The notes below the pieces were generated by a model, which saw nothing but the letters and a program-made list of their open reading frames with translations, searched no databases and had not been told where the DNA came from. A DNA stretch of 64,000 nucleotides, from NCBI GenBank assembly GCA_965287045.1, contig OZ336880.1, positions 74,152,001 through 74,216,000 on the forward strand, in the 5' to 3' direction. The position numbers and the translations under genes were made by a program. How positions within the stretch are numbered: the first letter of the stretch is position 1; each line of letters starts with the position of its first letter. This DNA comes from Carcharhinus amblyrhynchos. Lineage: Eukaryota. This document shows positions 17,148-62,221 of the stretch, in pieces.

Positions 17148-17287
17148 NNNNNNNNNNNNNNNNNNNNNNNNNNNNNNNNNNNNNNNNNNNNNNNNNNNNN
17201 NNNNNNNNNNNNNNNNNNNNNNNNNNNNNNNNNNNNNNNNNNNNNNNNNNNNNNNNNNNNNNNNNNNNNNNNNNNNNNNNNNNNNNN
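17148..17287. other. Assembly gap (140 N)
   Basis: Run of N. Confidence 1.
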
Positions 17288-18741
17288 GCAGTCTGCCTTC
17301 CCCTACGTGATTTCGGCTGTCAGTTATTGGGCATAATTACTGTAACTAACCAAATACACACAAAACGTTGAGAATATAAAATTGTTACAGTTTCGCCTGT
17401 GTGCAAGCTGGTACTTTGCTGTCACAAAGGGGCCAATTTCTTTTTAGAAAATAAAGGTCTCTTTTTAGCTTCCTAGGGCTTTTAAAAAGGCAGTGACTAA
17501 ATTAAGTATCTTATCTGCTCCTATGCATAATTTAATCAGTATTTTTGTTGAACTCCTCCTCTTGATACTCTGGTGCAAACAGTGCGAAAGCTGGCAGATT
17601 TTGAACAGGTATAGGAAAAGAAGAGAATCTGAAAGAGGTGAGCACGTGGCGGGACCTATTCACAACTCCAACGCAACATTTTGCGATTAACAAATTAGTT
17701 GGGTAGTTTGTTCAAATTGCTGCTGAAGATTCTCACTATGGATTTACTTGCAAAGCAAATGAAGTCACATGAAAGTGTTTACTGTGCCACACAAATGTAT
17801 TTATTCCATAAATGCCAGCAACACCTCACTGGTCAGCTAGTTATAACTAACTCGTTATAATTAACCAGGCCAATATCACCACCTCCTGTTGCAGAAAACT
17901 CCCCTCCCCCAGAAGAACCAATGCTGTGATACTATGATTGAACGGATGGTGTGTTCCCATGTCTCATGTAAATGTGATTTCAATATTGGCCTCCTACATC
18001 CATTTACAAAACAACAGGACAAAGTTTTCCATCTTACTCTTTGATGGTGACAGTAGTCTTTTAACATATGCCGTTAATTCAGACTTTTTAAACTGGAACA
18101 TATCTATCCAGTGTTGAGATGTTTCCATTGTTTAGAAGTGAACATGTTGGTAAAAGCTGTTTTTAGCATACCTTTATTAATTTCATCCGTTTAAAATAAG
18201 TTGCATTTTTGGGAGACTCAAAGAAATTTGGTAGCAATCAGGTGCTTTTCAGAGTAGAATTGGGCTTCCTGTTGAATTAAACCCTAAGGAGGATGGAAAT
18301 CCCAGCCCCGAGTGCTGCTGGTCATTTAGAGACGACTTAAGAGCCTCAATAAACTTCCCGGCTCGTAGGCCGGTCTCCACCCTTCCTGCCCTGAGCTTGA
18401 TCAGAAGGAGTCAGGAAGGCAGTGTTTCACCACCTCGCACCATCCTGCCCAATAAAATGTGCCCCCCCCCCCCCACCCAGCCTCTAAACACCTCCCTGGC
18501 GGGGGTGGGGGGTACGTAAAAATTCTGGCCTGTCTTTTCATCCTCTAACAGAACACACAGAGGACCGTGCTACCAGGTCAAGATGGCTTTTTAAAATAGC
18601 CATGTTGTGGAAGTTCCATTTCCACAACTAGTTTTTGGTGCGATCATTTTCTCTCTCTTCTGCTGTCTCAGTGGGTGAAGATGCCACGTGATATGGTACT
18701 AGACCATACAAGGGGTGGGATGTGATGGGCTGGTGTGCGCT

Positions 18742-18818
18742 GAGTAATAAGTCTCACAACACCAGGTTAAAGTCCAACAGGTTTATTTGGTAGCACAAGC
18801 TTTCAGAGTGTCACTTCT
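18742..18818 (-). mobile_element. Truncated relative of the hammerhead-bearing insert (3' half of the ribozyme plus tail)
   Basis: Minus strand agaagtgacactctGAAAGCTTGTGctaccaaataaacctgttggactttaacctggtgttgtgagactt. The CTGANGA half is missing. Confidence 0.75.
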
Positions 18819-26330: not shown

Positions 26331-26722
26331 CTTATCAACTCTCACACCCTTGTGTTTCTCACTAGAAATGATCTTTTTTCTTCCAAGTAGCAGAGTTGAC
26401 ATAAACAATGCACGTTACCATTCTTACTCAACGTTAGAGTACATTTTGCATGGGGTTCAATTACTCATGCTTCCGAAAGCTTGAGGTCTGCTGGAAGTAG
26501 AACTGTTGAATGTAGGGGTAAGGTTGGTGTTAAATTTGAGCTGAACAGGAACTCCTCGTGGATCTGTTTTCTCTGTAAAAAGTCTCTCAGGCAAAATTAC
26601 TTTCAAAGACTAAAGGGGGAAAAAAACTGAGAGTGCTGTTTCATTTTTGCATTTTAATTGCAAGCAGTGTATCAAACAGTGAGACTAAAAAATGTTTTGA
26701 GGCCTGTGCTCCGAATTCTGTA

Positions 26723-26877
26723 AAAAGTCTGACAACACCAGGTGATTCACCTGACGAAGGGGCTAACCCCGAAAGCTTGTGAGTATATTATCAAATAAAT
26801 AGGTTGGACTAAAACCTGGTGTTGTCAGACTTTTTACTGTGTTACACCAGTCCAACGCCGGCATATCCACATCATGA
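26723..26877 (+). mobile_element. Short TSD-flanked Penelope-derived retro-insert carrying a hammerhead ribozyme (copy 1, with 5' inverted segment)
   Basis: 14-bp TSD ctccgaattctgta (26709-26722 and 26878-26891). 24-bp inverted repeat, 26720-26743 vs 26814-26837. About 5 differences from the copy at 37981-38111. Confidence 0.88.
26745..26784 (+). ncRNA. Minimal type I hammerhead ribozyme
   Basis: ATTCAC-CTGACGA-A-GGGG(CTAA)CCCC-GAAA-GCTT-GTGAGT. Stem I attcac/gtgagt, conserved core, 4-bp stem II, palindromic AGCT stem III, CUU cleavage triplet (after 26778). Confidence 0.8.
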
Positions 26878-27464
26878 CTCCGAATTCTGTACAGGATTTC
26901 GGTCACATTTGGGAACAAGGATAAATTGATATAACATTTGGTCCAAGAGACCAAACAAGAACTTATGCTTAGTTAGTTTGTTAAGTACCAGTTACATGAC
27001 CAACTGCTTCAAAACAAAACACAATAACAAGCATTACAAACAAGAATTATTTCTAAAATAATCAAATAAAGCCAATATAAGAGTGCCTCATGGAGACTAA
27101 TACTCAAATCCAATAGTTATCAAGTGTGGTCATGTCCCACCATCAACTACCACTCCTCTGGCAAAGGTTTAACAGGACCAAAATGGACTAATGCCTAATT
27201 AGTTCAGTATAGACCTTCAGGTACGCCATGAACACAGATGGTTCAGCTGTTCATTCATGCTCTAGGAAGCATCAGTTGTAAAGCATTTAATGAATGATAT
27301 TAGGACAGAGGCTCACTTTTACAGAGGATGGTACTAAAGGAATCAACCACAGCAAGTTTGGAGGAACTTAGTAGAATGAACTTGATCATAAAGGTTCAAA
27401 TCTGTACAAATGCAAGCACAGTGAGAATGCCCTGGATATATCACAATGGTAAGCATCTTTAATC

Positions 27465-37363: not shown

Positions 37364-37980
37364 TAAAGGATAACAGGAATAAAATGGGAAGGAAAATCTG
37401 TAAGATAAAGCTCAAGGGAGCAAAATTGCTACTTTATCAAAGATTTGAAAGTCTTCAGTTGTAGATTGTTGAAATATTCCTTTCCTCAGAGTGCAATATT
37501 ATTTAAAAGCAACAGAATAAAGTATAACCATGCACAACACACCTACTGAAAATTCATTCCTGCAGCTGTGGAGTGTGCAATGATTGTAGGGAATGTCTCA
37601 ATGATCAACGGTAAAATCCTATTTCATTGGTTTGGTTCTGGAAGCTCTGATGGACTGTGCAATGGAGCACTGACGTGATGTCTTATTTTCTCACTGGATG
37701 GAGGAAGACTACTAATATCCAGGGTTAGAGGAGACTACATTTTTTATATTATTCAAGTATTCTACAATTAGCACATCTTCCCTGACGATACTGACACAGA
37801 ATGGTCTTGACCCTTTGCATTGTGGAGTATGCAGCAACAATACTGGCTGAAAAATCTTTTTTATTCATAATATACTGTGCCCTCCACTGATAAGGGCAGT
37901 GAGGATTCAATTGCCCTCATGCAGATCTAGAAAAACAGTAGACACCAGGTTATCGAATCAGTTCTGAGCAAAGGTACAAA

Positions 37981-38111
37981 TGATGTGGGTATGCCGGCGT
38001 TGGACTGGCGTAAACACAGTAAAAAGTCTGACAACACCAGGTTTTAGTCCAACCTATTTATTTGATAATATACTCACTAGCTTTCGGGGTTACCCCCTTC
38101 GTCAGGTGAAT
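37981..38111 (-). mobile_element. Short TSD-flanked Penelope-derived retro-insert carrying a hammerhead ribozyme (copy 2)
   Basis: 12-bp TSD caaaggtacaaa (37969-37980 and 38112-38123). 131-nt insert near-identical to 26745-26874. Confidence 0.9.
38072..38111 (-). ncRNA. Minimal type I hammerhead ribozyme, sense to the ZEB2 pre-mRNA
   Basis: Minus strand ATTCAC-CTGACGA-A-GGGG(GTAA)CCCC-GAAA-GCTA-GTGAGT. GNRA loop on stem II, CUA cleavage triplet. Confidence 0.8.
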
Positions 38112-40862
38112 CAAAGGTACAAACTCAGGAGACTTAGAAGAATCAATATCAGGCACTAAACAATACCGATGAATAGAGTAGATGATGAGAGATATACTGA
38201 TCTTGAGTGAAGGTCTGGCATACTGATTGCTCTTACTCAGTTATATAAGGTGGGGAGCTTAAATGGACTACTTTGAATGTAGATTGATGTTGTGCCAAGA
38301 ACCTATTAATCCCTTTCCTAATCTCTTTAAATGGAGGAGAATATGAATGATGTGGAGTGTGGAGAAGTTCAACACCTGGATACAAGAGGGATAATGTTCT
38401 GACTTCATGGTTCCAAGTAGGAAGCTTTGCTTGCTGGAGGCATCTGTTGTGTGGGCTCCATATACATTGACTCTCCAGGCTATGCAATTATTCCTGTGAT
38501 AGCATCTTCTATAAGAGTAGTGTGATGAACAAATGGTTGTCTATATTATCATCTGCCATTCAATGCTAAAGGCCAGTCAGTTAGTCAGGTCAGAGACACA
38601 ATAGGAGTATCTCTAAAACCCTTTACAAAGGTTGTCTGAGGCACTGGTGGCACAATTTCCAGGTGTTTGGTCAAACATTTAGAGAAGACATGTATAGGCA
38701 GCTAGAGGCTGGGATGGGTTGGGGTGGTGCGCTGTGGAATTCCACAAGCTGTCTAATTTCAAATAGATCAGTGGTAGCATGCGATGCCCTTTATAGTGAC
38801 GCATGTAGACTATCACAGCTGTAGATAGTTTCAACCCACATCAGCAGCATTTCTGAATTTCACCTTACCATTGCCCTACACATCGCATAAAGCATTTAGC
38901 CAACAGGATCCAGGTAAAAAAAAACACAAATACCCTTGGCATTGACGCAGGTGCATTAGAGTTGGGCACGGATACAGACAGCAGGTCTATGTGTAAATAT
39001 AGCCGCTTGGCAGTGCAGCCAATCACCTGTGCAAATCCTTTAATTAGGAGAGCACATAACAGCAAGTCATGTGCACAACAAGCAAGACCACAACAGACAA
39101 GTGCAACCACAATACACATGAAGCAGATGCCTTACCATTCCTACACGATTGAATAAAATTCATTCACTTTCATTCTGTCTTGCAGTCTGTCATTCTTTTA
39201 GCGTACAGAGCAGAAAGCGTCAGTTGTTTAAAAGCAAATAGAACAGAGGCACTTCTCTGCTAAGAAAATAAAAATATCAGTTCACTGATTGTTACGTGTC
39301 CAGTGGAAAGCAATCAGATTTGTTTTTCAGTTGAGAGGCAACAGCTCAAGCCTGGCTGGTGATAAAAGCAATACCTCAATCTTCCAAAGTGTCAAACATC
39401 AACATCCAGGAGGCTGTAAGTCCAAGAAAATAAATCTTTCATCTTTAGCACGAGCATCCCCATTCAAAAGCATCTGAACTCATTATCTTGTTTTTAAAGT
39501 AAATGAGAATTGTTATCAAACTGCTAGCTGCCTTAATCAACATTTATTTTTTTTTATCTTGTTTCTCTCCTCTTCCTCCATAGAATGTCCCTTTTCTCTG
39601 GCCAGAAGACCCTAAGCCTCAGCCTGTGGTGACACTTCAAAACCTTCCTGTTCCTTAAATTGAGTAATGGCTGTTGTGAAAAGAATATTTATTTGCGAGT
39701 TGATTGTGTAGCTGCCAAACATGATACAAGTTCATCAGTAAATGACATTACGAGACGTAACAAGTAAACATCTTTTTTAATTAACATTTTTAGAAAGATA
39801 GGAGAGGTCAAAGCTGCACTACATGTGGAAAAATAGTCCATGGTTTCTTTTACCCCTAAGTCACCCACCGCGCTCCATTCCTTCCTTCCACCACTTTTTA
39901 GTCGTATCTGTTCTTTTGCATCAAATTACAGAGGGAGATATCTTAATGCAGAAGTAAGTGACTTTCTCTCGTAAGTGTTTTTTGGATGAGGTACAAATTA
40001 TATTTCCACAGTTTTATGACAAATGTTAAGAACTAAGACTTACATCTAAAAAAAATTGCCTCTGAGTGTTTCAGGAAGCCAAAGAAATTCCATTTGCTGC
40101 AGTTTTAATGGGCCAGAGTGACAGAAAAGGCCCTCCATCATGGTGCCTAGTAACAAAAGGTCAAGGAGCTTGATCTTCCTGTATCTGACTCTTATAGGGG
40201 TTGGTGGCTCGGTTCATGTGCAGAAGAAGCATTATCTGCCACTTGAGTAAGTGAGATGTGGATACGCACAAAGTTCAGGCTTAGCAATGCACCACTTGTA
40301 GTCATAATGAGGTAAACACTGTTACAATATTCCAGAGATGCACCAATCTCCTGGACCTCACAGTAATCCACACCACTACAAGCAACAAGCTGGTTTGGAA
40401 ATCCTGAGCACGTGCATACTAAAGTTACATCGCACATTTCATTTACAGGAATCTATTGTTAATAATTAGTTCTGGTTAACATTATAGATGTGTATCTATC
40501 AACCTAGAGAACTTGTGGTTGGCTACTGTGGCACCAGTGCGAAACTGTGGGGTTGGCAAAGGCTGGTTGGGGAGTAGTCAGGACATTTAAAGTCAAATAT
40601 TTCTACGACAAATACAGTGACACTGACATCTGGTTGACAATGATTCTGATCTTTTAATACTAAAAAAAACCAAGAAAACTATGTTAGATAGTACTGAAGA
40701 ATTGACGTAATTGCCTGAAGTTGAAGATGGGGGTTGCAATGAACCTTTGGAAAAGGGAAATGTACCCAGGAGCTAAAATGGTTGAAAGTACTTATTTTGT
40801 AAAAAGATGCTGCTTGATAGTGCATCTTGAACAGAGTTAAGCAGGAAGTTAATTCTCAAGCT

Positions 40863-61432: not shown

Positions 61433-61517
61433 AAATAAATCTGTTGGAATTTAATCTGGTGTTGTGAGACTTCTTACTGTGTCTACCCCAGTCCAACACT
61501 GACATCTCCACATCATG
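61433..61517 (+). mobile_element. Tail-only relative of the hammerhead-bearing insert
   Basis: aaataaatctgttggaatttaatctggtgttgtgagacttcttactgtgtctaccccagtccaacactgacatctccacatcatg. Same 3' end as 26793-26876, ribozyme absent. Confidence 0.8.
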
Positions 61518-62221
61518 CCTGTCAGCTACCCATGCAAAGATGGTATACTTTGCAACCAGGCCTCCAAGGCCAAGAGCTGCTCAACAGCCTCATATAAGGC
61601 TATCTGCTGACTCTTGCACTGTAATTGGCACAAACTAGTTATGGCCTCCTGGTGGGAGCCCTTCCTCCCCCTCTTCCAGCTGTCTATTCTGCTTTGTGTG
61701 ACCTCTGCCCGTTCTCCAGGTCAATCTGTAGTTGAAGGGCAATGTCTCGGAGTACAACCATATCTGGCAGCAACGGGTTAATACAAAAAAAACATCGGAG
61801 TCAGCAAAACACTACTTCAGCACCTGCCATCCCACTCCCTGTGGTCTTCTGCAGTTTCAAACAACTCTATAAAGCACCAGCACAGCAACAATCACAAGAA
61901 ATCAACCAGCAAGTAATTTGTAAGTAGTTGACCATCCCTTCAAGAAGAAGAGTGGTCTTCCTACTGCTTAATGTATGTTCAGTTCTGCAATTGTTTAAAA
62001 GAGAGAGCACTGGCATGAGTTCTGAGCTCTGAAATTTCACCCTGGCATCAAATCAGTATTGCATGCAAATTGCTATTGTGACCTTTCTTGCTCTGCATAC
62101 TTCCAGTGGATATTCACAGTATGCACACTAATGCCTGAACCAATATGTTGTCTAGATCAATTGACTCCACAAGTCCGCAATGCAATCTAGATGACATTTT
62201 GGAGCCCTAGCGATGCTTGAA

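Follow-up and report, generated by a model that had tools for sequence, protein, structure and literature searches.

A Short Hammerhead-Bearing Insert in Carcharhinus amblyrhynchos Is a Truncated End of an Abundant Penelope-Like Element Often Found at a Symmetric Target Motif

The integration of Penelope-like elements (PLEs) is poorly understood, and one full-length PLE protein alone has been studied in vitro (PMC11167929); this and the other papers below are cited for the accessible parts of their texts. For Poseidon of Anolis carolinensis (PAc; Frangieh et al. 2024, PMC11167929), reverse transcription is described to start at two internal sites, with both target strands cut and extended on an uncleaved RNA template, and the ribozyme requires the protein. 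An inverted truncated copy accompanied by a tail is known in PLEs (Craig et al. 2021, PMC8557442), as are insertions with a median of 128 bp resulting from truncation (PMC9977147). The targets described are AT-rich or ATT sequences (PMC11167929, PMC3846280) and microsatellites (PMC8557442, PMC9977147). Minimal PLE hammerheads cut weakly and not as monomers, and these motifs, mostly solo, have been attributed to truncated PLEs (Cervera and de la Pena 2014, PMC4209133).

The window analyzed here is a 64-kb stretch of Carcharhinus amblyrhynchos DNA carrying two short insertions with a hammerhead motif, copy 1 and copy 2. Copy 1 very probably derives from an autonomous PLE with an endonuclease, as a two-armed insertion with heavy 5' truncation, likely made by the RT/GIY-YIG protein of the element itself. 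Its forward unit is numbered q1 to q133 (26745–26877). The features of the two copies are the following:

26745–26877, forward strand: forward arm of copy 1, the last 133 nt of a PLE pseudo-LTR (pLTR), tail included
26709–26720, strand not applicable: left target site duplication (TSD) of copy 1, most likely 12 bp
26878–26889, strand not applicable: right TSD of copy 1, likewise 12 bp
26704–26706, forward strand: left half of the copy 1 target motif, CTG, its core TG separated from the 12-bp TSD by 2 nt
26892–26894, forward strand: right half of the copy 1 target motif, CAG
26720–26743, reverse strand: short inverted arm of copy 1, exact reverse complement of q70–93, ending at the short-arm start site of the family
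26745–26784, forward strand: minimal type I hammerhead motif, by sequence, fold and variants, fitting descriptor features in the accessible text of PMC4209133
26794–26799, forward strand: AATAAA, putative function
26803–26856, forward strand: stem-loop across the short-arm end region (q93–100)
26838–26877, forward strand: PLE "tail", about 35–40 nt between two 3' end classes, containing the ATG of the parent ORF (26874–26876)
37981–38111, reverse strand: copy 2, a single arm q1–131, with a 12-bp TSD (37969–37980 and 38112–38123), CTG at 37964–37966 and CAG at 38126–38128

Perfect 14-nt repeats (26709–26722 and 26878–26891) enclose an insert of 155 nt in copy 1. They, the hammerhead string, the AATAAA and the 3' stem (gttggac/gtccaac, 26803–26809/26850–26856) are all present as the first-pass annotation had described. 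Its reading of the repeats as perfect 14-bp TSDs stands for the match itself and not for the TSD, which most likely consists of 12 bp (26709–26720), the 2 further nt being common to an inverted arm. Indeed, the first 22 nt or so of the insert are part of a second, inverted arm of 24 nt (26720–26743), which the annotation had missed, and the apparent left match reaches 26722 because TA is common to the TSD and this arm. We read 12 bp because 12 nt is the modal TSD length of the family and since, among 13 TSDs that seem to measure 14 nt, 11 contain a 12-nt register flanked by CA on either side. The second insertion reported at 37981–38111 is also present with its own 12-nt repeats. The copies differ at five places (four substitutions and one indel), two of which fall, as had been claimed, in loop II and at the cleavage nucleotide N17; these differences are variants also found in long copies. 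The unit had been described as devoid of any ORF, a statement to be corrected, as its last bases hold the ATG of a parent ORF.

No ORF remnant of the parent element was found within the 64-kb window. Older PLE-end fragments, 78–84% identical, lie at 18733–18804 (reverse strand, with a decayed hammerhead core) and at 61433–61520 (forward strand, core absent). A 14-nt stretch over the TSD/inverted-arm junction of copy 1 (26717–26730) recurs exactly 145 nt upstream (26572–26585) and nowhere else in the window, maybe by chance or as a tiny older remnant. Positions 17148–17287 are 140 N, and SINE-like repeats and CA microsatellites abound in the remaining window.

The 133-nt unit is the terminal part of the pLTR of a PLE and not a stand-alone retroposon. 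The 2.92-Gb assembly searched contains 24,074 occurrences of an exact 34-mer from the unit, against 0 for the reversed control, which places the unit far beyond chance and corresponds to about 24,000 arms of the element. Most of the top unit matches extend 5' of q1 into common sequence, with the end of an ORF 215 nt upstream, and 38 to 133 nt of the unit lie directly downstream of the 3' half of this ORF in all 12 loci fetched. The complete pLTR-ORF-pLTR structure is seen in two natural copies (L063 and L064), in which the unit precedes the ATG (q130–132) and follows the stop codon. Their hammerhead-to-hammerhead period is 3,026 nt and their intact ORF encodes 893 aa; a third locus (L066) carries the identical ORF. 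The protein matches RVT_1 of Pfam with 38.4 bits (cut-off 29.6), and its C-terminal 150 aa match GIY-YIG with 24.5 bits (cut-off 22.6), a match that passes only on the isolated domain. YIDD is found at residue 534 and, in the linker between these two domains, C-x4-C-x2-C at residues 755–763. The element thus has the single ORF with a reverse transcriptase (RT) followed by GIY-YIG that characterizes endonuclease-bearing (EN+) PLEs, and a pLTR formed by a partial tandem with a hammerhead. The linker points to the Neptune/Nematis type, an assignment made by this motif alone. EN+ PLEs of that type, as presented in the accessible text of Craig et al. (2021, PMC8557442), also combine a single RT and C-terminal GIY-YIG ORF with a CX2-5CxxC linker (here C755–C763), a hammerhead in the pLTR, heavy 5' truncation, an inverted truncated partner and a tail of 30–40 nt. 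The same source ties the linker to microsatellite targeting, whereas the target here is a bipartite palindrome with a TSD mode of 12 nt.

The parent is an active-looking PLE, and copy 1 is its ordinary truncated end, in a family that is itself very abundant. The earlier view of copy 1 as a young insertion mobilized by a PLE was right. A search of the PDB returned no relative. Close relatives of the element are present in the sequencing runs of seven organisms (word share 0.15–0.71), indicating that other genomes also contain the family; the stretch is covered by four runs, which come from three of these organisms.

We mapped the ends of the first 100 consecutive arms with the exact 34-mer on contig C1, a sample that includes segmental duplicates and cannot contain arms starting 3' of q60. 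Their 5' ends span −2025 to +58, 67 being upstream of q1, 33 inside the unit and none at q1. The 3' ends form two classes about 35 nt apart, with 46 arms ending at about q93–100 and 52 at about q127–142, and two arms run into the ORF. Genome wide, junctions were counted as 18- to 22-mers with two non-consensus bases in front. We found 500 of them among 23,073 arms at q1 (2.2%), 652 at −10 and 112 at −16 (both counts without denominators of their own), and 100 among about 15,700 at the control position −42, where the denominator is taken from a neighboring pattern. Apparent 5' junctions at q1 therefore exceed those at the control position by a factor of about 3.4, within a broader pile-up from −14 to +12 where arms end at 1.2% per nt compared with 0.2% per nt upstream.

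The first-pass annotation had proposed a mini-retroposon of about 130 nt built around the hammerhead, self-contained and non-autonomous, whose 5' end would be fixed and which a PLE protein would copy whole. Both window copies do begin at ATTCAC, the q1 junctions exceed the control as just described, and, like copy 2, 5 of the 27 insertions that start at q1 consist of a solo arm directly flanked by its TSD. However, only 2.2% of the arms have a junction at q1 and none of the 100 consecutive arms starts there, and the unit follows the ORF directly in all 12 loci fetched for the ORF end. The scattered 5' truncation points of the 100 C1 arms are what the annotation had itself named beforehand as speaking against its proposal. 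By inspection, the first 30 q1-start arms represent 27 insertions, of which 19 are two-armed with differing junctions and three are of other kinds. These 30 arms display 18 different 16-mers over stem II and its loop, and their junctions are mostly unique, which means that they arose repeatedly from autonomous subfamilies. They are repeated by-products of these subfamilies and have no lineage of their own; the combination of a fixed 5' end with its own variant lineage, as in a SINE-like family, was not found. Moreover, the exact q1–47 variants of the window copies also occur in arms that continue upstream (4/13 and 10/12, respectively), and a TATA-like box lies outside the unit. The mini-retroposon reading, to which we give very little credence, is largely refuted already.

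Equally short, non-coding and pLTR-related, with a type I hammerhead, are the non-LTR retrozymes (Li, Clavereau, Pollet 2026, bioRxiv 10.64898/2026.07.22.740005), which the accessible text of that preprint proposes to derive from pLTRs. A retrozyme monomer, reinserted from a ribozyme-cleaved circular RNA intermediate, would share the type I hammerhead with copy 1. Yet such retrozymes are by definition arranged in tandem, each repeat having its own hammerhead, whereas the insert is solo and its autonomous parent is continuous with it. Neither window copy contains a tandem unit, each having one sense-strand hammerhead, and the unit neither starts nor stops at the predicted cut, where junctions are at background (87 of 13,951, or 0.62%, at q34/q35, vs. 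0.64% in the control). We consider this origin exceedingly improbable. Cut-site junctions at this level likewise led us to reject ribozyme-cut RNA as a template for insertion.

In the hammerhead motif itself, stem I (26745–26750/26779–26784, ATTCAC/GTGAGT) is followed by CUGACGA (26751–26757), an extra A (26758), a 4-bp stem II (26759–26762/26767–26770), GAAA (26771–26774), the palindrome AGCU (26774–26777) and N17 (26778), after which the cut is predicted. The full core is present in 141 of 182 anchored arms, overlapping loci being counted separately. Of the 163 arms in which N17 was parsed, 124 have T, 38 have A and one has G, so that 162 carry either T or A. In stem II, the second pair alternates between G-C and A-U from one variant to another, a compensatory change; the common stem I variants lose one pair, uncompensated. 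Judged by its core, stems, palindromic 15.2–16.2 and an N17 that is not G, the motif is a real minimal type I hammerhead with a predicted cut after 26778, as the first reading had it. Like the metazoan PLE hammerheads of Cervera and de la Pena (2014), it has an extra nucleotide between 9 and 10.1, a G10.1-C11.1 pair and the 15.2–16.2 palindrome, and helix III is without a loop; its sequence was not found among the minimal hammerheads in the accessible part of PMC4209133. The Rfam models proposed for its identification did not recognize it: nothing in the window reached the gathering score, and over 26600–27000 no hammerhead model was matched even at E ≤ 10. According to ViennaRNA, a double hammerhead has −22.3 kcal/mol compared with 2 × −11.6 for two monomers and −28.6 for the minimum free energy dimer, so that the double hammerhead is not favored unaided. 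The hammerhead of solo copies is predicted to be a passenger that would not cut as a monomer, and that of copy 1 is most likely an inert passenger. No pile-up of copies occurs at the predicted cut, an empty site that appears in line, by analogy, with the uncleaved RNA template described in Anolis (PMC11167929).

Both window copies sit in CTG-N16-CAG. An exact TSD of at least 7 nt was found in 115 of 188 insertions and none in the other 73, with lengths that peak at 12 (51 insertions), followed by 13 (29) and 14 (13). After merging of similar sites, a centered TG-N16-CA is present at 75 of 108 sites, as against 303 of 16,133 control positions (1.9%), and 33 sites are without the full motif; in the consecutive sample, it is present at 21 of 34. 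Written with the duplication, the target is TG-N2-(12-bp TSD)-N2-CA. In the half-sites of 12-nt TSDs, CA occupies +3/+4 in 86 of 94, for a window background of 8.5%. Under target-primed insertion, this symmetric motif and the 12-nt TSD would place a nick 5' of NNCA(G) on each strand, with 12 bp between the two. From its symmetry, the target likely reflects a paired (dimeric) endonuclease. We scored no full target motif in the 5' pile-up region of the pLTR itself. PAc prefers AT-rich 5'-ATT-3' sites (PMC11167929), whereas the shark element targets TG-N16-CA. Among the papers listed in the accessible literature, none indicates this motif or the element family in its title or the opening of its abstract, and the novelty of the motif is uncertain.

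A search for head-to-head arms yielded 37 pairs, of which three repeats were dropped, leaving 34 unique pairs. Nearly all consist of one long and one short arm. The two arms stop within 15 nt of each other in 20 of the 34 pairs (permutation mean 4.3, maximum 12 in 20,000), including at distant positions (−514/−520 and −273/−274). Arm divergence is 1.7% within pairs versus 5.9% between pairs (23 pairs). A few pairs have arms of different variants (e.g., L069 and L085), showing that an origin from one RNA is not universal. By analogy with PAc, these statistics fit two primings on one RNA, at two internal sites as in the accessible account of PMC11167929. A protein dimer would make the two nicks, and one or both 3'-OH ends would prime reverse transcription at two internal sites, near q131 and q95, on one uncleaved RNA. 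The cDNAs would halt at the RNA 5' end or before it and would join head to head, as in copy 1, or to the flank, as in copy 2. Such a scheme parallels PAc, with its two internal RT start sites bounding the tail, its cutting and extension of both strands, its uncleaved RNA template and its predicted dimer; the PAc ORF starts inside the hammerhead, whereas the ATG lies here about 95 nt downstream of the cut (PMC11167929).

At head-to-head junctions, the sequence at the arm ends is often duplicated in short templated stretches that resemble end-joining filler (L183, L187, L199, L206, L212, and L216, near locus position 400). Identical insertions with identical flanks recur at 5.28–5.49 Mb of C1 (L120–L123) and in other C1 pairs, reflecting segmental duplication of host DNA.

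The excess of 5' ends at −14 to +12 likely marks the start of a transcript read from the 5' pLTR: a TATA-like TTTATATG is located at −32, and bases resembling an initiator occur both at −10 and at q1. A TATA box and an initiator have been described in pLTRs of rotifer PLEs (PMC3846280). The pile-up would then be run-off at the transcript start when priming falls in the 5' pLTR. With the same PLE identity, the short class might instead be due to RT stalling at the hammerhead stems, or to fold-back or microhomology joining at local palindromes. GGCC and GAGA/TCTC near-palindromes are indeed present at −14 to −1, and the accessible text of Arkhipova 2013 (PMC3846280) takes such palindromes as self-priming; many of the 40 inspected −10 junctions carry 2–3 nt of microhomology, and within the unit, too, stops are more frequent (0.5% per nt at +12 to +60). 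Stalling or joining accounts less well for the sharp edge between −16 and −10 (112 vs. 652 junctions), for solo arms that also begin at −12 (L117 and L133) and q1, for paired arms that co-stop at distant positions, as from a common RNA end, and for the TATA-like box and initiator-like bases at fitting distances. We regard it as a serious contender without thinking it the probable explanation, and retain run-off at a transcript start as the likely one. A cap-derived extra G before q1 or −10 was also considered and found no support: in the 30 + 40 loci inspected, G is common but mostly accounted for by the inverted arm, microhomology or the TSD.

A splice-donor consensus (GTGAGT, 26779) starts right after the predicted cut, and a pyrimidine tract and CAG follow 72 nt on (26850). 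If 26779–26850 were spliced out, stem I would be lost, and the short-arm site with it. The Penelope element of D. virilis has a 75-nt intron (PMC2377424). We observed no spliced-like junction of this 72-nt candidate in the fetched loci, and its joint is absent from the contigs of four runs presumed to be RNA, contigs that show presence only. Among the runs listed, there was no RNA data set with element sequence. The AATAAA precedes the two regions of RT start; were it used in the 3' pLTR, the mRNA would keep only the sites of the 5' pLTR, and short copies would be favored.

The insert itself is a known kind of thing, a truncated PLE end, and its interest rests on the symmetric target motif and the paired-arm statistics of the family. 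Taken together, they lead us to a tentative proposal, whose chances we put a little short of even: this PLE would encode an undescribed, sequence-specific, two-fold symmetric integration machine, a GIY-YIG/RT dimer acting on (C)TG-N16-CA(G), with nicks 12 bp apart and two cDNAs primed from two sites on one RNA. Its commonest short product would be run-off of the mRNA 5' leader, which would spread hammerhead motifs in their thousands with no separate mini-element involved. The family, with thousands of young insertions and with intact ORFs, yields sharp predictions of the nick position, a 12-bp stagger and a palindromic recognition motif, and further predicts that a single RNA is primed twice and that ribozyme-cut RNA is not used. 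If true, a PLE endonuclease with a bipartite motif would depart from the AT-rich or microsatellite preferences described and would bear on the origin of the structure formed by an inverted arm and a tail.
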